Shown here piece after piece: positions 14,215-54,033 of a stretch of 64,000 nt of DNA. This DNA is from an uncultured Alphaproteobacteria bacterium (GTDB lineage Bacteria > Pseudomonadota > Alphaproteobacteria > CACIAM-22H2): positions 445,993-509,992 of the forward strand of contig CAVVJD010000014.1 in assembly GCA_963748455.1 (NCBI GenBank). Direction: 5' to 3'. The translations under genes and the position numbers were made by a program. The notes beneath the pieces are model-generated. The model saw only the letters and a list, made by a program, of their open reading frames with translations, did not search any database and was not told where the DNA came from. How positions within the stretch are numbered: position 1 is the first letter of the stretch; the number at the start of each line of letters is the position of its first letter.

Positions 14215-14245
14215 CTCTCGTTTCCTCCGATGTCCGTATCGTTGT

Positions 14246-15193
14246 TCAGCAGTTGTTCGCGTCGAGCCAGGCGAGGATCATCGCGGCGAGGTCGTCGCTG
14301 TTGTCCTCGATCATCATCATGTGGCCATTGCCGTGGACGCCGCGGTCGGGCAGCCACGTGAAATCGGCGCCGAGATAGTTGGCGGTGGCTCCATCGACCG
14401 CGCGTGGATGGCGCGGGTCGTGGTCGCCCGTGACGATCAGCACGCGGTGGCCGCTGAGGTTCTTGGGATCGCGGATCTTCAGTCCACGTCCACCGATATT
14501 GAAGCGCTCGTTCAGGATACGCGCGCTCTCCGGCACGATCGAGCGGCAATAGTTTTCAAACGTATGCCGGGGGAAGCGCGGTGCGTTCGCCCAAAAGCTT
14601 GCCGCGAATTCTGTGCCCAGCCAGACCGGCTTGTCTTCGACGGAATAGACTGGGCAGCCCGCGCCCGCGTCGTCGCGCAGCGCCAGGATGGCGGCCGGAT
14701 CGTCTGGCAGGTCTCTCAACAGGTTCGCCGGCGGGCCGGGCGCGATGCCGATAACCGCTGCCACGAGGTCGGGGCGTTGCTCCGTCATCCACCACGCCAT
14801 CGGGCCGCTCGCCGAATGCGCGAGCAGTACCGCGGGTCCGATCTCCTCAAGAAGAGCGAGGAGCGAGGCGGCGACATCCGCGGCCCCAAGCTTCGGAAAG
14901 TCCGGACGCATGGGCGAGCGGCCATGGCCGGGCCAATCGGGCACAAACACGTCGCGGCCGCTTGCCGCGAAACGCGGCGCCCAGCCAGGCCGAAGGTCCG
15001 GGGTCGCCATATAGCAGGTGCCCGTATGGCCCCCGCCGTGCACCATCACGACCGGCGTCTTGTTCGCGATGTCTCCACGCGCGCGCACATGATCCACATA
15101 GATCGGATGGGCGTCCGTTCCGGAATATAGACACAGTGGCGCATCCTCGGGCGATGCGCGCAGGCGCCCATGCCAAGCCGGCACGGCATCCAT
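14246..15193 (-). CDS. Alpha/beta-hydrolase fold protein.
   Basis: VVMVHGGGHTG ... LLAHSASGPMAW (GxSxG nucleophile elbow) ... catalytic His near the C-terminus. Confidence 0.8.
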   Translation of the reverse strand: MDAVPAWHGRLRASPEDAPLCLYSGTDAHPIYVDHVRARGDIANKTPVVMVHGGGHTGTCYMATPDLRPGWAPRFAASGRDVFVPDWPGHGRSPMRPDFPKLGAADVAASLLALLEEIGPAVLLAHSASGPMAWWMTEQRPDLVAAVIGIAPGPPANLLRDLPDDPAAILALRDDAGAGCPVYSVEDKPVWLGTEFAASFWANAPRFPRHTFENYCRSIVPESARILNERFNIGGRGLKIRDPKNLSGHRVLIVTGDHDPRHPRAVDGATANYLGADFTWLPDRGVHGNGHMMMIEDNSDDLAAMILAWLDANNC

Positions 15194-40923: not shown

Positions 40924-41040
40924 GGAGAGGCTCCTTCTGGCGAATTCCCGCAGAATCTGCCACGTAATCTATGGCAATAGATTTCGTTCTGGCATTCCGT
41001 TATTTTCATACTGGAATGGGCCAGAGAGGAGTTCTTGAAA

Positions 41041-41567
41041 TGAATGAAAAGAACAGGGCGAAGTCGGGCCCACCCGAAGAGGCGGCGCCGGTGGCTCTCG
41101 ACCCAATCGACCGCAAAATTCTCGACATCCTGCAGGAGAACAACCAGGTCACGAACCTGGAGCTCGCCGAGCGGATCGGTCTTTCGCCCCCACCCTGCCT
41201 GCGCCGCGTGCGCCAGTTGCACGAGCGCGGCGTCATTGCCAAAGATGTGGCCATCGTCGATCCGGCCAAGGTCGGCCGCACCATCACCGCATTTGTCGGC
41301 GTCGAGTTGGACCGCCAACGCGAGGACGTGCTGGCGAGCTTCGAGCGCAAGATCCGTGCCGAACCTGAAGTGCAGCAATGCTATTTCGTCTCGGGCGATA
41401 TCGACTACCTGCTGGTTGTCACGTGCGTCGACATGCCGAGCTACAACGCTTTCGCACGGCGCGTGCTGGCCAACGAGCATAACATCAAGCGCTTCCGCAC
41501 CAGCTTCAACCTGTCGCGGATCAAATACGAAACCAAGGTGCCGCTGGGGGCGGCGGCTTCGGACTGA
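41041..41567 (+). CDS. Lrp/AsnC-family transcriptional regulator.
   Basis: LDPIDRKILDILQENNQVTNLELAERIGLSPPPCLRRVRQLHERGVI (HTH_AsnC) plus a RAM domain. Divergent from the SHMT-like gene. Confidence 0.85.
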
Positions 41568-41676
41568 TCGCAAGCAGCGCATTTTTTGCAGGGACGAACT
41601 CTCAAGCCACGCCTAGAATGCGATCTTGGTGAGTCCTCCGAGTGCGCCGAGCCCGGCCGGGATGGGACCTCAACCA

Positions 41677-44600
41677 TGCGCTGCGCCGCCTGTGATGCAG
41701 ACAACCCTGCCGCTGCCAAGTTCTGCGCGGCCTGCGGCGCGAGTTTGGGCGTGCCGTGTCCCCGCTGCGGTCATGGCAACCGCCCGAGCAGCCGCTTCTG
41801 TGTCGAGTGCGGCGGACAATTGACCGGGCCGACGCCGGCTGCCGGATCGTGACATGACGTCGCGCCCGCTCGCGCCGTCGTCCTACACGCCCCCGCATTT
41901 GGCCGAAAAGATCCTCGCGTCTCGCGACGCCGGTCGAGGGCGAGCGAAAGCAGGTCACGGTGCTCTTCGCCGATATCAAGGGCTCGACCGAGCTTATTCA
42001 AGCCTTGGACACCGAGGAGGCCCAACAAGCTTCTCGACGGCGCGGTCAAAGTGATGATGGACGCCGTGCATCGCTACGAAGGGACGGTGAGCCATGCGCT
42101 GGGCGACGGGATCATGGCGCTGTTCGGGGCGCCGATCGCCCACGAAGACCACGCCGTTCGCGCCTGCTATGCCGCGCTGGCGCTCCAGGACGGGATGCGC
42201 CGCTACGCCGAACAGGCGCGGCGGACCCACGGGGCGTTGGTCCAGGCGCGGGTCGGGCTGAACAGCGGCGAGGTGGTCGTGCGGTTGATCAGCGATGATC
42301 TGCACATGGACTACACGGCCATGGGCCCGACCGTCCATCTCGCGTCGCGCGTGGAGCAGCTGGCGCGCGAAGGCACCTGCCTGCTCACCGCCGAAACGCT
42401 CAGATTGGTGGAAGGCTATGTGCAGGTTCGCACGATCGGCGCGGTCGCGATCAAGGGGCTGGATCGCACCGGCCGAGCTGTTCGAGCTGCTGGGCGCCGG
42501 TGCGGCGCGGACGCGCCTGCAAGCTATGGCGGTGCGCGGCCTGACCCGGTTTGTCGGACGTCAGGCCGAGCTGGTCGCCGATCCACCGCGCCCTCGAACG
42601 TGCCCAGCCCGGCCACGGCCAATTGGTGGCCTTGGTGGGGGAGCCGGGCGTCGGCAAGTCGCGCCTGGTCTGGGAGGTCACCCACTCTCACCGCACGCAG
42701 GGCTGGCTGGTGCTGGAGAGCGGCTCCGTCTCCTACGGGAAGGCGACATCCTGGCTGCCGGTGATCGACCTGCTCAAGGCCTATTGCGGGATCGGGCCCC
42801 GCGATGACGCACGCTCCATCCGCGAGAAGCTCACCGGCAAATTGCTCACGCTGGACCGCAAATTGGAGCCGAGACCTGCCGGCCTTTCTGTCTCTGCTCG
42901 ACGTGCCGATCGACGAGGAATCCTGGCAGGCTCTCGATCCGCCTAAGCGCCGGCGGCAGACGCTCGATGCCCTCAAGCGCCTGCTGCTGCGCGAGAGTCG
43001 CGAACAACCGCTCCTGCTGATCTTCGAGGACGTGCACTGGATCGACTCGGAGACGCAGGCCCTGCTCGACGGCCTTGTCGAGGGTCTCCCCACGGCCCGC
43101 ATCCTCCTGCTCGTCAACTATCGGCCGGAATACACGCATGCCTGGGGGAGCAAGACCTACTACACGCAGATCCGGATCGACCCTCTTGGAGAGGACAGCG
43201 CCGAGGCGCTGCTCGATGCGCTGTTGGGGACGGCCCGCCCGGTCGACGATGATGGCAGGGCCGAGGACGCGCAAGAAAGCCCACCGCTGCACGACCTGAA
43301 ACGGCTCCTGATCGAGCGGACCGAGGGCAATCCGTTCTTCCTGGAGGAAAGCGTCCGCACGCTGGTCGAAACCGGCGCACTCGTCGGCGAACGAGGGGCC
43401 TACCGGCTGGCCGCGGAGGTTGCGGGCATTCGTGTGCCGGCGACGGTCCAGGCGGTCTTGGCAGCCCGCATCGACCGGCTCCCCGCAGAGGAGAAGCGGC
43501 TGCTGCAGACAGCGGCGGTGATCGGCAAGGATGTGCCATTTGCCCTGTTGCGGGCGATCACCGTCGAGGCCGCGGACGCAGCGCACGCGCGATCTGTTCA
43601 CGGAGGAAGACCTGAGGGCCGGCCTGGCGCATCTTCAAGCGGCGGAATTCCTCTACGAGGCGAGCCTGTTTCCCGTAGCTGGAATACACATTCAAGCACG
43701 CCCTGACGCATGAGGTGGCCTATGGCAGCCTTCTGCAAGAACGCCGCAAGGCGCTGCACGCGCGCATCGCTCGCCGCGATCGAGACGCTGTATTCCGACC
43801 GCCTGGCCGAGCATGTCGAGCGGCTGGCCCACCACGCCCAGCGTGGCGAGTGCTGGGAGAAGGCGCTGAGCTACTCCCGTCAGGCAGGACTCAAGGCCGT
43901 GGCCCGCTCGGCCAATCGCGAGGCCGTCGTCTTTTTCGAACAGGCCCTCGCCGCCCTTGGGCACCTTCCGGAGACCCGCGACACGCTGGAGCAAACCGTC
44001 GATCTGCGGCTTAACCTTCGACAGGCGCTTCTCCCGCTCGGGGAATTTGAACAGATCCTGGACCACATCCGTAAAGCCGAGACCATTGCCGAGACCCTGA
44101 ACGATCAGCGCCGGCTGGCCCGTACCCTCTGCCTGGATGGCGTATTCATACTGCTTCACGCTCGGCGACAATGAGCGAGCCATAGCGACCGGGCAGCGCG
44201 CCCTCGCAATCGGTCGCGCGCTCGATGACCTCCCGCTCCAAGTCCTCGCGACGTTCTATCTGGCCTATGCGCACTGGCAGCGGGGTGACTATCGCCAAGC
44301 GATCGACGGTCTCAGATGGATCGTGGTCAATCTCCAAGGCGAGTTGATCCGCGAGCGCTTTGGCATGGCCGGCTATCCGTCGGTGCTCGCGCGCGGCTTG
44401 TTGGCTTGGTGCCTGGGCGACACTCGGCGAATTCGCCGAAGGGAGGGCCTATGCGCAGGAGGCGATCAGTCTGGCGGACGCGCTTGACCAACCCTTCAGC
44501 CAGAGCGTCTTGAGAACGTGGCTGGGCCATTTCTATGTCGCTCAGGGTGATCTGCGCACCGCGATCTCTCTGCTCGAGCAATGCTGTGCGCTCGTCGAGC

Positions 44601-45178
44601 GCTGGGACATCCCGCGCCTTGGCGCCATCGCCGCCTCGCTGCTCGGCGTCGCACATGCCCTGAATGGGCTGCCCCACACGAAGGCGTGCCGTTCCTGGAG
44701 ACAGCAGCAGTCCAGCTTAAATCCGAGAAAGGAAGCTCCGAGACCCGCCTGATCATTCCCATATGCGAGGGATATTTGCTGGCCGGCCGGATTGAGGACG
44801 CGATCCGGCTCGCCGACCGCGCCCTCCACGGCTCCCGGACGCGCAAGGAACGCGGATACGAGGCGCAGGCATCTGCGCCTCCTCGGCGACATCGCCGCGC
44901 GCCGCGATCCACCGGACGGCGACGAAGTCCGAATCCCGCTACCGCCAAGCGCAGAAACTGGCCGAGGACTCTTGGCGATGCGGCCGCTCCAGGCCCATTG
45001 CCATCTCGGCCTTGGCAAGCTCTACCGGCGCATGGAAAGAGCGCACGAGGCGCATTTTGAACTTTCCACGGCCGTCGACATGTTGCGGACAATGGAGATG
45101 ACGTTCTGGCTGCCAGAGGCAGAGGCCGAACTGGCGGAGGCGATAGCATCGCCATCGGCGAAGCGAGTCGGATTATAG
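41677..45178 (+). pseudogene. Heavily decayed class III adenylate/guanylate cyclase - AAA ATPase - TPR regulatory protein, about 10 frameshifts.
   Basis: N-terminal zinc-ribbon (CAACDADNPAAAKFCAACGASLGVPCPRCGHGNRPSSRFC), cyclase core (VTVLFADIKGSTEL...GDGIMALFGAP), P-loop (LVGEPGVGKSRL), DUF/AAA_16 region and C-terminal TPR helices. These are spread over at least 10 different overlapping ORFs in three frames. Confidence 0.8.
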
Positions 45179-45227
45179 CCCCCTCCTTCACCGCCGACCT
45201 TCCTACAACGACCACGCCGATACCCGC

Positions 45228-45325
45228 CAACGAGCAAAACATCAAGCGCTTCCGCACCAGCTTCAACTTGGCACGGGTCAAATACGAGACCAAGGTGCCA
45301 CTGGAGGAGAACGCCACGGCCTGAC
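45228..45325 (+). pseudogene. Remnant: diverged 3' end (last about 31 codons) of an Lrp/AsnC-family gene.
   Basis: Encodes ANEQNIKRFRTSFNLARVKYETKVPLEENATA*, versus ANEHNIKRFRTSFNLSRIKYETKVPLGAAASD* at the end of the intact lrp (41470..41567). About 85% nucleotide identity over about 95 bp. Confidence 0.75.
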
Positions 45326-45417: not shown

Positions 45418-45786
45418 ATGGCTGTGCGCGACGATCTTCTCAAGCTGGAAAGGCAATTCTGGACCGGCGACGCGGATTTCTATCGCGAGCATCTGGACGA
45501 CAAATGCCTCGTGGCCTTCACGGACATGGCGGGCGTCATGGGCAAGGAGGATATCGCCCAGATGGTGAAGAAGGACCCGCCGCGGTGGAGCGACCTAAAA
45601 TTCGAGGACAAGGGCATGGTCACGCCCGCCGACGGAATCGCTATTCTGAGCTATCAGGCCAGCGGCAAGCGCGGTACCGGCGCGGCGTACAAGGCGGTCG
45701 TCAGCAGCGGCTATGTGAAACGCGATGGCGCGTGGAAGATGGCCTTTCATCAGCAGACGCCGCTTGGAACCGACGCCGGAAAATAG
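45418..45786 (+). CDS. SnoaL-like / NTF2-like (DUF4440-type) small protein.
   Basis: 122 aa. LERQFWTGDADFYREHLDDKCLVAF...DGAWKMAFHQQTP pattern of the NTF2-like superfamily. AGGAGA RBS. Confidence 0.6.
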   Translation: MAVRDDLLKLERQFWTGDADFYREHLDDKCLVAFTDMAGVMGKEDIAQMVKKDPPRWSDLKFEDKGMVTPADGIAILSYQASGKRGTGAAYKAVVSSGYVKRDGAWKMAFHQQTPLGTDAGK

Positions 45787-45962: not shown

Positions 45963-48455
45963 ATGCGCAAGACTTTCTTCTATGCCGGCGTGTTCCTCAC
46001 ATGCCTGGCGACATTGATGCTGCAGATCATCGAGACGCGCCTGCTCTCGGTGACCGCGCATTATCATCTCGCCTTCTTCTCGATCAGCATGGCAATGTTC
46101 GGCATGACGGCCGGTGCCGTCTGGGTTTACTACAACAGTGCGCGCATCACCGCTGAAACTCTAGCGTCCACCCTGACCAAATTCGGGTCCGCTTTTGCCC
46201 TTGGCACCGTCGCCTCGGTCCTGCTGCAAGTCACGCACGCCCCGGTCCTGGTTCTGTCCGCCACCACGATCCTGACCTGGGCCGAACTCGCCATCGTCAT
46301 GGCGACGCCGTTTTTCTTCTCGGGCGTGGTTGTCAGCATCGCCCTGACGCGCAGTCCCTTCCCCGTAAATCAGATCTACGCCGTCGACCTGATCGGTGCC
46401 TCGCTCGGATGTCTGGGCGTGCTCGCTCTCCTGGATGTCCTCGATGCCGTTTCCAGCATTTTCGCGGTTGCGGCCGTCGGCGCCGCGGCGGCGGGCTGCT
46501 TTGCCGCGTCCGCGGCCCGGCCTGCACGACGCAATTCCCGGCTTCTGGATCGCGTCCTGTTCCGCCCGTGGACGATCTGCGCGGTGCTGATCGCAATGGC
46601 CGTGGCGAATGGCGCCACGATCCGGGGTATCCAGCCGATCGTCGTCAAGAACACGGTCGACCGCCGCGAGAACCTGTCGTTCGAGCAATGGAACTCCTAT
46701 TCCAGAATCATCTCGCGAAAGCCGTATGTCGACGAGCCGCTGCTGTGGGGCCCCTCACCGACAATGCCGGCGGATTTGAAGGTCGAGCAACGCCGCCTCA
46801 ACATCGATGGCGACGCCGCGACGAGCATGTTCCGGTTCAATGGCGATGTCGCCAGCGCCCGGTTCCTGGCCCATGACGTGACAAACCTCGCCTACGCCAT
46901 CCGCAATTCGGGACGCGCCGCGATCATCGGCGTCGGCGGCGGCCGCGACATGTTGTCGGCCTGGATGTTCGGCTTTCGCGACATCACGGGCGTCGAGCTC
47001 AATCCCATATTCATCGATCTCCTTACGACTCATCCGAATTTTCGGAACTTCGCCGGCCTCGCGTCGCTGCCGGGTTTGCGTTTCATCGTTGACGAGGCTC
47101 GCAGCTGGTTCGCGCGATCGACCGACAGTTTCGATCTCATCCAGATGAGCATGATCGATACGTTCGCGGCGACCGGTGCCGGCGCGTTCTCGCTCTCCGA
47201 GAACGGGCTTTATACGATCGAAGGATGGCAGCATTTCCTGAACCGTCTTGCGCCGAACGGCGTGTTCACGGTCAGCCGATGGTATTCCGCAGGTGAGGTC
47301 AATGAGACCGGCCGGATGATCAGCCTCGCGGTCCGCACGCTGTTGGACAACGGCGTGCACGACCCGTCACGCCACATCTTTCTCGGCGCGACCGGAAATC
47401 TTGCGACGCTGGTGCTGTCACGCACCCCACTCACCGCTGCCGAGATTGCAGCATTGCACAAGACTTCGAGCGATCGGGAGTTTCAGATCCTGCTCAGTCC
47501 CGGACGTCCGGCAGCGTCGCCGCTTCTGGCGTCCATCACCGCCGCGAAGAGTCCTGCGGAACTCGCGCGCGCGACGTCGGGGTATCTCCTCGATCTCAGT
47601 CCACCCACCGACGACCGCCCGTTCTTTTTCAATCAACTGCCGCTGACACGGGCCCACATGGCTCTCAACGTGCAGAGTTTCGAGAAGCCCGGCGTTCTGA
47701 GCGGCAACATCATCGCGTCGGCGACGCTGCTGCTGATCGTCGTCCTGGCGTCGATCCTGGTGCTGGCGACGATCGTGATCCCGATGCGGCCGGCGATCCG
47801 GCAATCCGATGCGCGCCTGATCGCCGCCGGCACGGTTTATTTCGTCCTGATCGGCCTCGGCTTCATGTTTGTCGAGATCGGGTTGTTGCAGCGGCTCTCG
47901 GTCTTTCTCGGCCACCCGATCTATTCGCTCAGCATCGTGCTGTTCAGCATCATTCTCTTTACCGGCCTCGGCAGCTTCGCCTCCGCGCGCCTTGCCCTTG
48001 ACCAGTCCGGCCGGTTTGCGGCCTGGGCGATCGGGCTCGCGGCCTATGTCTTTGTCCTGCCGATCATGCTGCCGGCGTTCATCGAGTCCTTCGCGGGGGC
48101 CGACACATTTCAGCGCGCGATCGTCGCTATCGGCCTGATCGCGCCCGGTGCCATCCTGATGGGGTTCGGCTTTCCCGCGGGCATGCGTCTGGTCATGCAG
48201 ATCGATGCCCGCCCCGCGCCATGGTTCTGGGGCATGAACGGGGCCGCGGGCGTGCTGGGCTCGGCCATCGCGGTCGCCATCAGCATCTCATTCGGAATCG
48301 ATACGACGCTTCGCCTGGGTGCGTTGTGCTACCTGGGGCTGCATCCCCGCCGCCTATCTGCTCGTCGGCGAGCGCCGGGCACAGATCGAAGCCGCCATCC
48401 TGCCGCCATCGGTGACGGCTACCGATTGACCACCATGCGATTGTCCGAGGCGTAG
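45963..48455 (+). CDS. Membrane-embedded spermidine/spermine-synthase-like fusion protein (N-terminal multi-TM, central aminopropyltransferase-like SAM fold, C-terminal multi-TM). Possible frameshift in the last about 35 codons.
   Basis: About 7 N-terminal TM helices. SAM-fold motifs AIIGVGGGRDM and DLIQMSMIDTFAATGAG. About 7 C-terminal TM helices. An alternative frame near 48345 gives a hydrophobic tail ...GLIPAAYLLVGERRAQIEAAILPPSVTATD*. Confidence 0.7.
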   Translation: MRKTFFYAGVFLTCLATLMLQIIETRLLSVTAHYHLAFFSISMAMFGMTAGAVWVYYNSARITAETLASTLTKFGSAFALGTVASVLLQVTHAPVLVLSATTILTWAELAIVMATPFFFSGVVVSIALTRSPFPVNQIYAVDLIGASLGCLGVLALLDVLDAVSSIFAVAAVGAAAAGCFAASAARPARRNSRLLDRVLFRPWTICAVLIAMAVANGATIRGIQPIVVKNTVDRRENLSFEQWNSYSRIISRKPYVDEPLLWGPSPTMPADLKVEQRRLNIDGDAATSMFRFNGDVASARFLAHDVTNLAYAIRNSGRAAIIGVGGGRDMLSAWMFGFRDITGVELNPIFIDLLTTHPNFRNFAGLASLPGLRFIVDEARSWFARSTDSFDLIQMSMIDTFAATGAGAFSLSENGLYTIEGWQHFLNRLAPNGVFTVSRWYSAGEVNETGRMISLAVRTLLDNGVHDPSRHIFLGATGNLATLVLSRTPLTAAEIAALHKTSSDREFQILLSPGRPAASPLLASITAAKSPAELARATSGYLLDLSPPTDDRPFFFNQLPLTRAHMALNVQSFEKPGVLSGNIIASATLLLIVVLASILVLATIVIPMRPAIRQSDARLIAAGTVYFVLIGLGFMFVEIGLLQRLSVFLGHPIYSLSIVLFSIILFTGLGSFASARLALDQSGRFAAWAIGLAAYVFVLPIMLPAFIESFAGADTFQRAIVAIGLIAPGAILMGFGFPAGMRLVMQIDARPAPWFWGMNGAAGVLGSAIAVAISISFGIDTTLRLGALCYLGLHPRRLSARRRAPGTDRSRHPAAIGDGYRLTTMRLSEA

Positions 48456-48545
48456 CGATTCAGGCCGCGATCGAAGACGAAAATCGCCAGCGCGCCATAG
48501 ACCAGCGCCGCGGCCATCACGGCCATCGCCTTGAATACGACCCAA
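48419..48545 (-). pseudogene. Remnant: diverged 3' end (last about 35-40 codons) of an ABC-2 permease gene, paralogous to the 3' end of 50509..52092.
   Basis: Encodes ...AMAVMAAALVYGALAIFVFDRGLNRYASDNRMVVNR*, versus ...FAAVIAAACIYGALAVFIFERGLRHYASGNRMVVNR*. About 78% nucleotide identity over about 125 bp, none beyond. Confidence 0.75.
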
Positions 48546-48618
48546 GGTGCCGCTGGCGGCGAGTGCCGCGGGCTGACAGGCCAAAGATCGTAAAGGGAGT
48601 CACACCGAGTCTTCGCCA

Positions 48619-49262
48619 TCAATAGGCAAGGCGACCATAGAGCTCCTCGAACGGAACCATCACGTGCTGTTGATAGGCGCGACGATCCTGGAGGCGCTGA
48701 TACCAGGCCTTCACGTTGGGAACCGACGGGCGCTCAATCTCAAGATTGAAATAGCGATAGAGACAGGTTCCGGCCGGAATGTCGGCCAGCGTCAGGGCGT
48801 TGCCGAGGAGGAAATCGCGCCCCGCGAGCTGACGATCGAGCAATGTGAAATGCCGCGCGCAGAGATCGATCTTCTTGCGCACTGCCGCCGTGTCGCGCTG
48901 CCGCGCCGGGGTGCAATAGAAGCCCCAGAAAACGCCCATCAGGAAATCGGGCTGCAGCGTGGTGTGCGCCCAATCCATCCAGCGATCCGATTGCGAGCGT
49001 TCGGCCGGCGCATCCTGCCAAAATGCGCCCCGCCTATAGTGAGCCGCCAGATATCGCAAGATTGCGTGCGATTCCCAGACGACCGTGCCGTGATCGTCGA
49101 TCACCGGCACCTTGCCGTGCGGGTTCATGGCGCGAAATTCGGCGCGTCCAGGCCACCGAAGGAACCGCCGGCCTCGATATGCCGGTGCTCGAGCCCAAGC
49201 TCGTCGACCATCCACATGACCTTCTGCACATTGAATGAGCTGCGCCGCCCCCAGATCGTCAG
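48619..49262 (-). pseudogene. Glutathione S-transferase, frameshift near 49140.
   Basis: N-terminus MLTIWGRRSSFNVQKVMWMVDELGLEHRHIEAGGSFGGLDAPNF is in one frame. The continuation MNPHGKVPVIDDHGTVVWESHAILRYLA... (ORF 48619..49353) is in another. Confidence 0.7.
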
Positions 49263-49294
49263 CATTCAATACCCCTCTCGCATGCACGCGTCGG

Positions 49295-49891
49295 TCAGCA
49301 GGTCGGAAAACCGAGATGCGCGCGGAGCCGGTTCTTGACATGCACCGCATCACGCGGCGGCAACGAGCGCGGCGGATTCTCCGCCTTTATCTTCAGGACA
49401 AAGAGTCGCGGACCCACGGCGGGCTGGCGCAGAACATCGCAAAGCGCGTCGACCTCCGCGAGGGTGCGGACAATGCCGGCCTCGGCGAAACCGCAAGACG
49501 CGGCGACAGCGGCGAAATCGAGGCCCTTCGCCGTGTGGCTTGCCTGCATTCCGGTTTCACCGAAATGCTCGTTGTCGAGGATGATCAGAGCAAGGTTCTT
49601 TGGCTTTGCAGCCGAAATCGTGGCCAGGCTGCCGAAGGCCATGAGCTGCTCCCCGTCGCCGGTGATGACCATGACGCGGCGCTTGGGCTGAGCCTGCGCA
49701 AGGCCAAGCCCGACGAGTGCGGCCGCGCCCATGGCACCCCATAGGTAGTAATTGTCGTCACGATCACCGGCGGCATGGACATCGTAGCTTGGCGATCCAA
49801 GACCGGTGACAACCAGAGCCTGATCGCGGCCGGCCAAGAGCGTGCGGACAGCATCGCGACGATCCATCGTAATCGGGGCTTGAACGTTCAT
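49295..49891 (-). CDS. comE: Sulfopyruvate/phosphonopyruvate decarboxylase-like TPP enzyme, beta subunit (ComE-like).
   Basis: TPP-binding motif GDGEQLMAFGSLATI...ILDNEHFGETG (GDG-X24-NN-like). Confidence 0.7.
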   Translation of the reverse strand: MNVQAPITMDRRDAVRTLLAGRDQALVVTGLGSPSYDVHAAGDRDDNYYLWGAMGAAALVGLGLAQAQPKRRVMVITGDGEQLMAFGSLATISAAKPKNLALIILDNEHFGETGMQASHTAKGLDFAAVAASCGFAEAGIVRTLAEVDALCDVLRQPAVGPRLFVLKIKAENPPRSLPPRDAVHVKNRLRAHLGFPTC

Positions 49892-49895
49892 GATG

Positions 49896-50477
49896 TCACC
49901 ACTTCTTCTCGCCAAGCAGGCGCTGGCCGATCAGCACCGCGATCTGCTGCTCCGCCTCGTAAGCCTGCGTTGCCGCCGACGCGACGGTTGCGATCAAATC
50001 CTCTGCCGTCTCGGCACGCATCACCCGCAGGCCGATCGCTTCGAGCGACGGCTGTGTCGCCCGGCTCATCGGCATCTGCCAGGGATTGAACTCCGCCCAC
50101 TCCCCGCGCATCGTGACCAGGATCAGCAAGGGGAACCGCGCCAGCACCGGCAGCGATAGCATATTGATGCAGTTGCCCACACCGCTCGACTGCATGAGCA
50201 GCACGCTGCGCTGCCCGCCGAGCCAGGCGCCCGCCGCAATCGCCACGCCCTCCTCCTCCGTCGTCAGCACGTTCGAAACGACGTCGAGATCCGCCAGGAA
50301 CAGATTGATCAGGGCCGAATGGCCTGCGTCCGGGACATAGGCCATGTGCTGAACGCGCGCGGCCTTCAGCAGCCTATAAAGCTCGGTCGGCCATTCACTC
50401 GTGGTTTCGGCTCCGGCATGAGCCACGGGATGCTGGTCGGCACCGGCCACGGTCACCCTCCTCTGGGTCGATTGCAC
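49896..50477 (-). CDS. comD: Sulfopyruvate/phosphonopyruvate decarboxylase-like TPP enzyme, alpha subunit (ComD-like).
   Basis: TPP pyrimidine-binding domain (YVPDAGHSALINLF...TTEEEGVAIAAGAWLGGQRSVLLMQSSGVGN). Sits 4 nt upstream of the beta subunit. Confidence 0.7.
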   Translation of the reverse strand: MQSTQRRVTVAGADQHPVAHAGAETTSEWPTELYRLLKAARVQHMAYVPDAGHSALINLFLADLDVVSNVLTTEEEGVAIAAGAWLGGQRSVLLMQSSGVGNCINMLSLPVLARFPLLILVTMRGEWAEFNPWQMPMSRATQPSLEAIGLRVMRAETAEDLIATVASAATQAYEAEQQIAVLIGQRLLGEKKW

Positions 50478-50508
50478 TGCCTCAACGACTATAACAGATC
50501 AGTCCGTT

Positions 50509-52092
50509 CTATCGATTGACGACCATCCGGTTGCCTGATGCGTAGTGGCGCAGTCCACGCTCGAAGATGAAGACCGCAAGCGCGCCATAGATGCAAGCTG
50601 CCGCAATCACAGCAGCGAACTTGCCAGGATCAGACTCGCGTATGGCCTCAACGGGCACCTGTGAGATGAACGCGACCGGCAACAGCGTGAACAGCAGGAT
50701 GCGCATGCCGGCCCCGAAGACGTGCTGGGGATAGACCGAGATCATCAGCACGACATTGACCAGCTCCTCGCCCAGGCGCACGGCGCGCGGCCACCAGAAG
50801 ACCAGGCACTGGCCCATCACGAAGGTGGCCAGCATCACGATGCCGCCAGCGGTGGCGAGCGCGATCAGCAGCGGCAGATCGGCAACGCTGCGCCCGCCCA
50901 GCACCAGCCACATCACGGGCGCACTGGCGAGATCGCCGAAGCCCGATGGGATCGAGCGCGACAGCAGCAGGCTGGGCAGCGGATGACGTGGCCGGCCGAG
51001 ATGGACATCGAGCCCGCCATCGGCGATGGCGCGGCCCATGTCGCGGAAGCCGCCGGCCATCGTCACGCTCAGGCCGAACGCCCAGGCCGCCATGCCGTAG
51101 AGCAGCGCGACATCCTGCTGCTGCCAGCCGGCCAACTCGCGAAAGCGCGCGAAATAGATCATCCAGATGATGAAGAAGACGAGGTTGTTGGCGAACATCA
51201 GGACGACGGAAACCAGCGCCTCGCCGCGCCGCGCGAAACCGGCCTTGATGTTGGTTGCCAACAGGGCGCCGAGATAGGTCAGCATGGCTGAGACTTCGTC
51301 GCGCACGAAACGGCGTGTCGCCGCGGCCGCAAGCAACGCCACGGCGATACCGACGATCGCCAGCCAGAAGACCTGCCAGGCGAAGACGCGCGCAATCGCG
51401 TGCGCGCTTGAGTCAAAGACCAGGCTCGCCGGGTGGAACATGATGGCGGCGAATGGCGACACCTCGCCGATGGCGCGGATGGCCGGCGGATAGAGGGTGA
51501 GCGGGATCAGCAGCCCGCCGAAGATGAACGCCAGCTTCTGCCAGACCCAGAAGAACGGTGCGGGCGTGCTGAGCCAGGCGGTCAGCAAGCCGGTGCCGAG
51601 CTGGAGCAGCAGCATGAGCACGGCGCCGACCGCCACGGTCAGCACCAGGACCGGCACCGTCACGAGGGCAAACGGCACCGTTCCCGTCGCCAGCGCGGTG
51701 ACGAGCGCGCCGATGGCACCCAGGGTCAGCAGGCGATAGGCGCCGCCGCCCAGCCACTCGGCGAAGACCGCCAGCGCATAGGGCAGCGGGCGCGTGAGGG
51801 AAGCTTCGACGGCGCCGGAGCGGATCTCGTCTTCCACTTCGCGGAAGGCGTGGCCGCCGATGAACACCACCCATTCCGTCACCATCACGTACCAGGCGAT
51901 GCTGGCTGCGTCGTAACCGGGCAGATCGACCAGACCCAGCGGTGTTGCCGCCCAGACCGCGACGAAGACGAGGACGGGCACAACGAACAGCAAAGCCCGC
52001 GCCGCCATGCCGACGCGATCGGCAGCGGCCTCGCGCCAGCCCAAGCGCGCGAAGGCGCCGAGAGCGGCGACGATGCGCGCGACTTCGCTCAT
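50509..52092 (-). CDS. ABC-2-type exporter permease (two fused ABC-2 membrane domains).
   Basis: 527 aa, about 12 TM helices, with duplicated ABC-2 family architecture. Translationally coupled (overlap) with the upstream ATPase. Confidence 0.75.
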   Translation of the reverse strand: MSEVARIVAALGAFARLGWREAAADRVGMAARALLFVVPVLVFVAVWAATPLGLVDLPGYDAASIAWYVMVTEWVVFIGGHAFREVEDEIRSGAVEASLTRPLPYALAVFAEWLGGGAYRLLTLGAIGALVTALATGTVPFALVTVPVLVLTVAVGAVLMLLLQLGTGLLTAWLSTPAPFFWVWQKLAFIFGGLLIPLTLYPPAIRAIGEVSPFAAIMFHPASLVFDSSAHAIARVFAWQVFWLAIVGIAVALLAAAATRRFVRDEVSAMLTYLGALLATNIKAGFARRGEALVSVVLMFANNLVFFIIWMIYFARFRELAGWQQQDVALLYGMAAWAFGLSVTMAGGFRDMGRAIADGGLDVHLGRPRHPLPSLLLSRSIPSGFGDLASAPVMWLVLGGRSVADLPLLIALATAGGIVMLATFVMGQCLVFWWPRAVRLGEELVNVVLMISVYPQHVFGAGMRILLFTLLPVAFISQVPVEAIRESDPGKFAAVIAAACIYGALAVFIFERGLRHYASGNRMVVNR

Positions 52093-53066
52093 GACGGCAC
52101 CGCGGCGGTGCGATAGATCGCGCGGATGATGTCGTCGAGCGGCGGGTTCTCGATGGCGAGATCGCGCACGGCGAAGCGGTCCAGTGCTGCGGCCACGACG
52201 CGCTCGACCGGCGTCACGTCCAGATCGACGGCGAAACTGACGCGATGCGGTTCGCGGCTGGCGACGGTGACGCCAGCAAGGTCGAGGACGGGCTGCTCTT
52301 CCTCGGTCATCAGCGTCAGCACGCGCTGGCGCAGATGTTGCGCGCGCAAGGCCGCCAAGGGCTGATCCATCAGCAGGCTGCCGCGGTCAATGACGATGGC
52401 ACGCTCGCAGATGCGCTCGATGTCGCCGGTGTCGTGCGAAGTGAGCAGGATGGTCGTGCCCTCCTCCGCCGACAGCGCCATCAGGTGATCGCGCAGGCTC
52501 GCCTTGGCCGACACGTCGAGGCCGATGGTCGGCTCGTCGAGCAGAAGGATCGGCGGCGCGTGCAGCAGCGACGCCGCAATCTCGCAGCGCAGGCGCTGGC
52601 CCAGCGAGAGCTGCGCCACCGGCCGGTCGAGCAGATCCGCAATCGCGAACTTGGCGGCGAGCAGTTCCAACCGCGAAGCGGCGGCCGCGCGATCGAGGCC
52701 GTAGATGCGCGCGATCAGGCGCAGGCTGTCGCGCACCGGCAGATGATACCAAAGCTGCGAGCGCTGCCCGAACAGGATGCCGATGTGGTGCGCGAGAGCG
52801 CGGCGCTGGCGCCACGGCACCAGACCCGCCACCTCGGCATGGCCCGAACTGGGTGTCAGGATGCCGGTCAGCATCTTGAGGGTGGTCGATTTGCCCGCAC
52901 CGTTGGGCCCGATGAAGGCCACGCGCTCGCCTGCCCGAATGGCGAAGGAAATGCCGCGCACCGCGGCGACCTCGGTCGGCGGCGATGAGCGGAAAAGCCC
53001 GCGAAGCCCCCGACGGCCGCGCAGCCGGAAGCTCTTGCTCAGGTTTTCGACCTTGATTGCAGCCAT
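52089..53066 (-). CDS. ABC transporter ATP-binding protein (ABC-2 / DrrA-like exporter ATPase).
   Basis: Walker A GPNGAGKST, signature LSLGQRLR, Walker B ILLLDEP, H-loop TSHD. Confidence 0.85.
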   Translation of the reverse strand: MAAIKVENLSKSFRLRGRRGLRGLFRSSPPTEVAAVRGISFAIRAGERVAFIGPNGAGKSTTLKMLTGILTPSSGHAEVAGLVPWRQRRALAHHIGILFGQRSQLWYHLPVRDSLRLIARIYGLDRAAAASRLELLAAKFAIADLLDRPVAQLSLGQRLRCEIAASLLHAPPILLLDEPTIGLDVSAKASLRDHLMALSAEEGTTILLTSHDTGDIERICERAIVIDRGSLLMDQPLAALRAQHLRQRVLTLMTEEEQPVLDLAGVTVASREPHRVSFAVDLDVTPVERVVAAALDRFAVRDLAIENPPLDDIIRAIYRTAAVPS

Positions 53067-53283
53067 AGCCCTGCCCCCAAATGCCAAGGGCCCCGAACCG
53101 TCGCCGGTCGGGGCCCCTGGGATCGCACACGATGTCGGACCTGCTCTCAGCCCACGACGTCTCCCAGGAGCCCGCGCGAAGCGGCTGCCATAAGCGTGAC
53201 GGCGTAAAGCGGATTGCGGCGCGACATGGCGTTATGCGTAACCGAAGTTGCGGGGCGCTGTCAATTGCAGGGCGTCGTACGGG

Positions 53284-53520: not shown

Positions 53521-53685
53521 GATTTGCGTTCTCCCATGCGAGGGCAAAAGCGGGCGTGGGCCCGCTTTATGATCTGCACAGTGGAACGTCGGGAGGACAA
53601 ACCGGTTCCGCGACCCGAATCAGCTCCGACGTGTACGGAGCAATTGCGTCTCCGGCGGTCCGATATATAAAGTTGTGCAACCGCG

Positions 53686-54033
53686 TTGGCCTACGCGACG
53701 ATCGCGCAGACGCGCCTGACGTTGTGGGGCGACGCGTCGCTGTCGATCGGCGCGCTGGTTGCCCTGGCCGTGCTGGCGATCGGGATTTTCCTGGTGCACG
53801 GCACCGCGTTCGGACGCACGGTGTATGCGATCGGCGGCACACTACTCACCGGCGGTGTCGGCTATGTCGCCCGCACGCTATTCGGGGTGCTTATCCTGGG
53901 CACCATCCAGACGCTGATCAATTTCGACGGGTCGCTCAGCTCGTGGTGGACGCGGATTGTCATCGGCGCCTTGCTGTTCGCCTTCTGCCTGTTACAACGG
54001 GTGTTCGAGGCCGGGCGCGGCCGCGCGCCATAA
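53686..54033 (+). pseudogene. Remnant: C-terminal about 100 aa of a sugar (ribose/xylose-type) ABC transporter permease.
   Basis: TVYAIGGTLLTGGVGYVARTLFGVLILGTIQTLINFDGSLSSWWTRIVIGALLFAFCLLQR resembles the conserved C-terminus of RbsC/XylH-type permeases (…AIGGN…A…SGI…). No N-terminal 200 aa present. Confidence 0.5.

Follow-up and report, generated by a model that had tools for sequence, protein, structure and literature searches.

A 64,000-nt stretch of a contig from an uncultured Alphaproteobacteria bacterium (GenBank assembly GCA_963748455.1, CAVVJD010000014.1, positions 445,993 to 509,992; hereafter the window) carries, besides a complete ABC-2 permease gene, a second copy of the last 115 nt of such a gene. 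This remnant, referred to here as p2', is joined directly to a displaced 3' end of an AsnC/Lrp regulator gene (asnC''). The reading favoured here, with a modest lean rather than firm confidence, is that p2' is an inert junction scar left by illegitimate, probably homology-anchored, recombination with a diverged variant of the locus, in which the permease gene would have stood tail to tail with the gene of an 830-aa membrane protein (P830). The first-pass annotation of this DNA had proposed that a block of GST, comE-like and comD-like genes was inserted beside the permease gene, creating the remnant and rewiring the operon. This is contradicted by relatives, which have the same block downstream of the permease gene and are free of the remnant.

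The permease remnant and its junction

The largest direct repeat found by a repeat search between 44 and 56 kb of the window pairs 48419-48523 with 50509-50613 (105 nt, 74 %). A codon-by-codon alignment extends it to 38 codons including the stop (48419-48532/3 against 50509-50622/3), which align without gaps and are identical at 81 of 114 nt (71 %); the chance of at least as many matches at a 30 % background is 2e-19 (binomial). At the protein level, 26 of 37 residues are identical (70 %) and 31 similar to the C-terminus of the resident permease (BLASTP E = 2e-15). The same number of residues, 26 of 37, is shared with the end of the corresponding permease P2 of a related contig (L001), and 19-24 of 37 with more distant orthologues. 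A tblastn search of the whole window with the L001 permease also recovers p2' (E = 4e-8). The in-frame homology and the shared stop support the first-pass identification of a 3'-end remnant of a PF06182-type ABC-2 permease gene at 48419-48533, and both permease tails indeed end in NRMVVNR before the stop codon. The repeat itself is real, but its reported size of about 125 bp and identity of about 78 % were too high. It covers about 115 nt at 71-74 % and stops at 48533, next to the start of an AsnC-gene fragment.

A complete PF06182 membrane domain has about 230-260 residues. Judged by its sequence, p2' is a gene fragment and not a gene. The open reading frame (ORF) in which it lies, 67 codons long (48419-48622), overlaps the GST stop codon (TTGA) and carries the permease-like stretch as its last 37 residues; only these are homologous, and neither Pfam nor NCBIfam gave a match. 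Because the 43-nt AsnC copy begins where the permease homology stops, the ORF reads as a chimera of two gene tails, one from the permease and one from AsnC. The remnant is best regarded as inert, since it is without a promoter of its own and codes for only one helix's worth of protein. More speculatively, translation of the 67-aa ORF, which has the last permease helix at its end, might yield a small membrane peptide.

The junction is abrupt. Homology to P2 stops at 48533 and homology to AsnC begins at 48534, with zero shared bases and no microhomology, as expected of an illegitimate junction. AsnC 3' ends occur three times in the window. All of them lie on the plus strand, include the TGA and form direct repeats in register with the stop codons. 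The fragment asnC'' matches the intact AsnC gene at 19 of 20 positions (41533-41552; E = 0.001 in the window) and a second displaced fragment, asnC', at 81 % over 36 nt (45290-45325). A piece of asnC' (45226-45305) is in turn 89 % identical over 81 nt to the AsnC gene of L001. The arrangement is that of a displacement scar, in which an intact anchor gene, ending at 41567, is followed by other DNA and by AsnC 3' fragments that end at 45324 and 48576. A fourth AsnC tail upstream of P830 (45865-45891, repeat D14) was considered and rejected, as the alignment is too weak.

In L001, the last AsnC codons (~14371-14400) contain an extra A (ACCAAGAGTGCC compared to ACCAAGGTGCC in the window copies), and the public AsnC gene call (14233-14898) disagrees with the gene as defined by tblastn (14967 down to ~14371). 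This discrepancy is probably an indel or an annotation problem in the metagenome-assembled genome (MAG).

The elements around the remnant are as follows.

40971-41567, plus strand: intact AsnC/Lrp-family regulator gene, the source family of both displaced 3' fragments
41568-45189, plus strand: 3.6-kb insert, absent from L001, with a broken adenylate cyclase-AAA_16-TPR gene
45190-45324, plus strand: asnC', copy of the end of AsnC (~135 nt, tblastn E = 4e-11) with its TGA stop; the DUF4440 gene follows after 93 nt
45418-45786, plus strand: DUF4440 gene, upstream of P830 in the window
45963-48455, plus strand: P830, gene of an 830-aa multi-pass membrane protein, with a +1 frameshift near 48342
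48419-48533, minus strand: p2', end of an ABC-2 permease (P2) gene (last 37 codons and TAG stop), in frame and free of indels
48534-48576, plus strand: asnC'', 43 nt of the AsnC/Lrp regulator 3' end including the TGA stop, joined directly to p2'
48577-48618, no strand: spacer of 42 bp from the asnC'' stop to the GST stop, with no L001 homology except for its last 5 nt
48619-49265, minus strand: GST gene, disrupted by the loss of 1 nt near 49139 (intact in L001, 215 aa)
49295-49915, minus strand: comE-like gene for a TPP_enzyme_C subunit (sulfopyruvate/phosphonopyruvate decarboxylase family) that scores under the NCBIfam equivalog cut-off
49896-50477, minus strand: comD-like gene, TPP_enzyme_N subunit
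50509-52092, minus strand: resident ABC-2 permease gene, 527 aa, with two PF06182 domains (P1 and P2) fused in frame
52089-53087, minus strand: ABC transporter ATPase gene of the same operon as the permease, 92 % aa identity to L001

P830 and the proposed history of the interval

The other neighbour of the remnant is P830, which has one extra G near 48342 relative to L001 and to a further homologue (L002). In the ancestral frame, P830 would end in PAAYLLVGERRAQIEAAILPPSVTATD before a stop codon at 48427-48429, overlapping the stop codon of the remnant (11 nt), and its homology to L001 reaches within ~12 nt of the remnant's stop. The two genes lie tail to tail, and p2' is not followed by any trace of the spacer that separates P2 from comD. 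Because the ancestral-frame P830 stop overlaps the remnant, p2' looks like a natural tail-to-tail neighbour of P830 in another version of the locus. The position of P830 also differs between the window and its relatives: the window has asnC', DUF4440 and P830 followed by the convergent p2', whereas L001 and a Logan contig (L100) have AsnC, P830 and DUF4440 followed by the convergent GST. At four-fold sites, P830 has diverged further from L001 (0.457) than its pooled neighbours (0.296).

A 931-bp JGI contig with a 95 %-identical DUF4440 gene has plus-strand genes 92 nt upstream and 176 nt downstream of it, compared to 93 and 176 nt in the window. Its upstream reading frame runs for at least 62 aa to the contig edge and exceeds the asnC' homology (~135 nt, 45 codons). 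This contig looks like an intermediate with the order AsnC, DUF4440 and P830 that is without the 3.6-kb insert. More distant DUF4440 homologues (73-79 %) lie in unrelated contexts and were uninformative. The 3.6-kb insert carries a 5'-truncated adenylate/guanylate cyclase-AAA_16-TPR gene in at least five reading-frame pieces and lies between two directly repeated AsnC 3' ends, those of the full gene and of asnC'. No integrase, transposase or recombinase domain was detected among the scanned ORFs of the interval, and an integrase-type island was dropped as a candidate for this reason.

Based on this anatomy, the interval between AsnC and GST would have been rebuilt at least twice, with DNA being placed just downstream of AsnC and an AsnC 3' fragment being displaced outward each time. 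In a first step, a locus with AsnC near GST would have received a fragment for which we infer the order AsnC, DUF4440, P830 and, convergent to the latter, the last 115 nt of P2. Recombination would have been homologous within AsnC and illegitimate at the far end, where the permease tail was joined to the last 43 nt of the resident AsnC. The remnant would accordingly be the end of a diverged allele or close paralogue of P2 that arrived together with P830. In a second step, the 5'-truncated cyclase fragment would have entered likewise, displacing ~135 nt of the then-current AsnC tail. Such a pattern would be the product expected of one-sided homology-facilitated illegitimate recombination (HFIR).

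The age of the remnant was assessed from 114 nt aligned with the P2 ends of the window and of L001. There are 33 mismatches to the window P2 and 35 to the L001 P2 (79/114 identical), compared to 24 between the latter two (90/114 identical). Because of these counts, the remnant is placed as an outgroup to the two P2 ends. Its differences from the window P2 are distributed 7/6/20 over the three codon positions. Changes unique to the remnant amount to 5/4/10, and there are six additional third-position sites at which all three sequences differ. The G+C content at third codon positions (GC3) is 0.84 in the remnant, 0.65 in the resident copy and 0.81 in L001, and the 38 remnant codons contain zero indels. 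The third-position enrichment, the absence of indels, the GC3 value and the outgroup status suggest that the gene was still functional while it acquired most of its divergence, and they favour the recently truncated end of a functional, diverged orthologue. In addition, the remnant has states common to more distant orthologues, e.g. ALVYGALA and FDRGL. Apart from the remnant, the only sequences with the NRMVVNR ending before the stop codon are the P2 of the window and that of L001, in a comparison with representative and metagenome homologues.

Several observations weigh against this history. With 19 changes, the bias among codon positions falls short of significance for the branch of the remnant itself (p = 0.2), and the divergence of 29 %, from a small sample of 114 nt, roughly equals that of neutral decay since about the split of the window and L001 (four-fold sites ~0.30). 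The higher four-fold-site divergence of P830 may merely reflect weak constraint. DUF4440 and GST are about equally diverged from the relatives: DUF4440 is 85.3 % identical to L001 compared to 83.8 % for the block from the ATPase to GST, and the values for a second relative (L100) are 84.5 % and 84.4 %. The block of DUF4440, P830 and p2' is not clearly foreign on this measure; the stronger claim was reduced to a possible foreign origin of the whole block, since DUF4440 is no more diverged than GST. Neither of the two parental arrangements, AsnC convergent and adjacent to GST or P830 convergent with P2 in a locus free of comDE-GST, was observed directly. An ABC-2 permease gene adjoins a P830 homologue in none of 80 loci, and the idea that P830 normally lies beside such a gene was rejected, as only L001 among them has one nearby, with comDE-GST-DUF4440 intervening. 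On the 931-bp JGI contig, the identities of the genes flanking DUF4440 follow from the spacing alone. Finally, the view spans 64 kb, and a paralogous operon elsewhere in the genome would go unseen.

An in-situ segmental (tandem) duplication, by which the permease 3' end was joined to the AsnC 3' end and after which deletions and neutral decay followed, is an unlikely alternative on this evidence. If AsnC, at 43 nt before its stop, had recombined unequally with P2, at 115 nt before its stop, p2' and asnC'' would stand in precisely the order and orientation seen here, and a divergence of 29 % is attainable by neutral decay over the time mentioned above. However, at least three further deletions or moves would be required to bring DUF4440 before P830 and P830 against the remnant. 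Neutral decay is also at odds with 38 codons without an indel, the GC3 of 0.84, the 31 of 37 similar residues and the third-position enrichment, as well as with the states that the remnant has in common with more distant orthologues.

A paralogous ABC-2 operon in another part of the genome might have supplied the remnant by ectopic recombination, which would be in line with its resemblance to the recently truncated end of a functional gene. The family is large, with 2621 representatives at E <= 1e-3. This source is nevertheless rather improbable, as there is no second copy within the 64-kb window and the NRMVVNR ending, found only in the P2 of the window and L001 among the homologues compared, suggests the orthologue of a relative over an old paralogue.

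The exporter operon in relatives

Close relatives of the locus were found by a search with the comE-like protein, which yielded L001 (a MAG contig of GCA_024708825.1 with 88 % comE identity) and two JGI contigs from one sample; the Logan contig L100 was added. L001 has the order zeta subunit, sugar-ABC operon, ABC ATPase, P1 (267 aa), P2 (258 aa), comD, comE and GST. A convergent DUF4440 gene lies 25 bp beyond GST, with an 813-aa gene, AsnC and SHMT next in line. One of the JGI contigs covers P1-P2-comD-comE (92 % comE identity), and the other covers comD-comE-GST and, after 30 bp, a convergent DUF4440 and a carbonic anhydrase gene (90 %). L100 contains the 3' end of the 830-aa gene, DUF4440 and, after 30 bp, a convergent GST. 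The permease-tail remnant is absent between GST and DUF4440 in L001, L100 and the latter JGI contig, where this gap measures 25-30 bp, and the permease tail occurs only once in L001. In a blastn comparison, the window and L001 align without interruption over 5004 nt (83.8 %), beginning upstream of the ATPase and reaching 5 nt beyond the GST stop. The permease-comD-comE-GST operon is inherited and untouched by the rearrangement. What is peculiar to the window in this comparison lies beyond GST, where P830 has moved, the remnant adjoins a piece of the AsnC 3' end and 3.6 kb are extra.

Other searches were less productive. Exact-protein look-ups with the permease, the zeta subunit and the comE-like protein of the window matched no record. 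A scan of genome contigs with the 527-aa permease found no relative, a word-indexed protein search returned one 47 % match, and only two of the representatives from the full HMMER search with the permease are close. A distant-mode plasmid search recovered P830 and comDE homologues only at <=80 % identity and in unrelated contexts. In ABC-2 operons at 55-60 % identity, nothing comDE-like lies downstream, while Mesorhizobium comDE homologues (81 %) are located between a LysR regulator and an aldehyde dehydrogenase. Since the distant ABC-2 operons are without comDE and the distant comDE pairs belong to another operon, the permease-comDE linkage is, by the gene orders compared, a trait of this small clade that predates the arrival of the remnant. 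A version of the locus that had no comDE-GST block is the probable source of the remnant. In Mesorhizobium sp. VK4C (L082), the comD/comE-like pair is part of a LysR-regulated cluster with aldehyde dehydrogenase, short-chain dehydrogenase and glyoxalase genes.

As noted in the first pass, the GST, comE-like and comD-like genes are on the permease strand and are situated between the remnant and the intact permease gene. A linkage must have arisen at some point, as distant operons have comDE and ABC-2 genes separate. An insertion of this block, carrying its own permease 3' end, into the permease gene would have displaced the original tail as the remnant and joined the block to the exporter operon. 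The bracketing of the block by two permease 3' ends is in line with such an event, and the junction between p2' and asnC'' could formally be the right end of a permease-anchored fragment of P2, comD, comE and GST that is convergent with 43 nt of AsnC. However, L001, L100 and the JGI contigs have comDE-GST natively and no remnant, with GST convergent with DUF4440 at 25-30 bp, and no synteny break separates the permease gene from the block, the stretch from the ATPase to GST being colinear with L001. In a donor with a permease 3' end, the block was linked to the permease beforehand, which means that the linkage cannot stem from this event. The block itself consists only of GST and two thiamine pyrophosphate (TPP)-enzyme genes, with no mobility genes among the scanned ORFs and no att or terminal-repeat structure other than the 115-nt repeat at 71 %. 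For these reasons, the insertion is quite unlikely to have taken place in this form.

A chimeric join of strain variants in the metagenome assembly is very improbable, although the contig stems from an uncultured organism and the region has several single-base frameshifts, because mis-joins need shared identical sequence and the p2'/asnC'' junction has no homology, the repeated pieces are only 71-80 % identical and so are not collapsed or duplicated reads, and the DUF4440-P830 spacing recurs in an independent assembly.

Within the operon, the gaps are all <=31 nt, the permease-comD gap being 31 nt, and the comD and comE ORFs overlap. A terminator or promoter separating the permease gene from comD was sought, but none was convincing; the only candidate, a single promoter-like match in the gap, was dropped because it is at chance level. 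Co-transcription of permease, comD, comE and GST is plausible given the short gaps, the lack of a convincing terminator and the gene order kept in relatives. The comD-like and comE-like genes have the split two-subunit layout, TPP_enzyme_N then TPP_enzyme_C, which bears out this part of the earlier comDE label. Its implied assignment to the sulfopyruvate decarboxylase equivalogs does not hold: both proteins stay under the NCBIfam equivalog cut-offs of TIGR03845 and TIGR03846 (109.6 compared to 147.95 and 140.8 compared to 221.5 bits), and homologues are annotated as 'thiamine pyrophosphate-dependent enzyme'. Since these cut-offs are not reached, the names comD and comE are to be taken as valid at the family level only.

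The GST gene is frameshifted, as the first pass had stated. Its reading frames in the window are 48619-49353 and 49125-49265, of which the latter is the N-terminal piece and the former contains the C-terminal part, reading to 48619. Compared to L001 and L002, two single-base indels were recorded, the 1-nt GST deletion at ~49139 and the 1-nt P830 insertion at ~48342, neither of which lies in a long homopolymer. The permease gene is affected as well. Near 51285-51295, a 1-nt insertion turns GTC TGA CC ATG of L001 into GTC TCA GCC ATG, removing the P1 stop near 51290 and resulting in one 527-aa protein, whereas P1 and P2 are separate in L001 (TGA, 2 nt, ATG). This fusion is either real or a sequencing error, and fused homologues occur only at ~28-34 % identity (P0124, P0149). 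Together with the broken cyclase gene, the indels and the fusion point either to real gene decay or to a noticeable indel error rate of the assembly.

Further differences concern the flanks. About 4.2 kb of the sugar-type ABC operon of L001 (2130-6313), comprising two BPD_transp_2 permeases, an ATPase and a binding protein, are missing from the window. At 53609-53839 (ORF 53686-54033, plus strand), beside the zeta-subunit gene, the window has a 150-nt fragment of a permease C-terminus with a weak PF02653 match. P830 itself has no match in Pfam or NCBIfam. Its homologues (37-78 % identity; L002-L081) come from Alphaproteobacteria, Acidobacteriota, myxobacteria and others and have varied gene contexts, and plasmid-borne ones in Microvirga are annotated as class I SAM-dependent methyltransferase.

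Relation to known systems and implications

HFIR, the mechanism proposed for the scar, has been demonstrated by experiments in Acinetobacter, Pseudomonas stutzeri, Streptococcus pneumoniae and E. coli, as described in PMC3240628 and in references given in PMC5361080. The window has the corresponding parts, i.e. an intact anchor (AsnC), non-homologous DNA and a displaced fragment of the anchor's 3' end, and its far junction between p2' and asnC'' is free of homology, with no recombinase gene among the scanned ORFs. Unlike the experimental inserts, which are usually short, those of the window measure 3.3 and 3.6 kb, and the case is read from sequence.

A second parallel is provided by the 3'-end (C-terminal) displacement arrays at Rhs and type VI secretion system (T6SS) effector-immunity loci (Kirchberger et al. 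2017, PMC5361080; Jackson et al. 2009, as cited there). Here too, successive insertions downstream of a conserved 5' region leave orphaned 3' fragments in direct orientation. In contrast to these arrays, the anchor in the window is an ordinary Lrp/AsnC regulator, the pieces are 43-135 nt long and non-coding, there is no toxin or immunity cargo, and the window shows no sign of selection for diversity. The attL and attR sites of integrase islands are similar in that direct repeats of a 3' end bracket inserted DNA while the target gene stays intact. However, no integrase, excisionase or tRNA target was found in the window scans, and the repeats differ in length (43 compared to 135 nt), are 72-80 % identical and have no fixed core site.

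By category, the remnant belongs to the bacterial gene-fragment pseudogenes, from which it differs in nothing essential, being a short promoter-less 3' fragment beside decayed genes, such as the frameshifted GST, the broken cyclase gene and the truncated sugar-ABC permease. There is nothing unusual about such a scar in an interval that is decaying and much rearranged. For annotation, this means that the 67-aa ORF is chimeric, the last ~30 codons of the 830-aa ORF are out of frame and GST is broken.

A more general reading, put forward tentatively, is that the AsnC/Lrp 3' end may be a recurrent landing site for foreign or relocated DNA, with one-sided homologous recombination as the means of capture and older tails being pushed outward. 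If true, the locus would be a housekeeping-gene counterpart of the Rhs/T6SS C-terminal displacement arrays, and the permease tail would preserve part of an 'empty' exporter-operon allele lacking comDE-GST.

For the organism, the exporter-comDE-GST operon is an inherited, clade-wide arrangement and not a recent rewiring; for this reason, no regulatory novelty is to be expected from the remnant. Its value is historical. Three AsnC tails and one permease tail would mark two successive events, and gene-tail scars of this kind, which record the order of rearrangements, may be used to reconstruct the history of a locus and to spot homology-anchored illegitimate recombination in uncultured bacteria.

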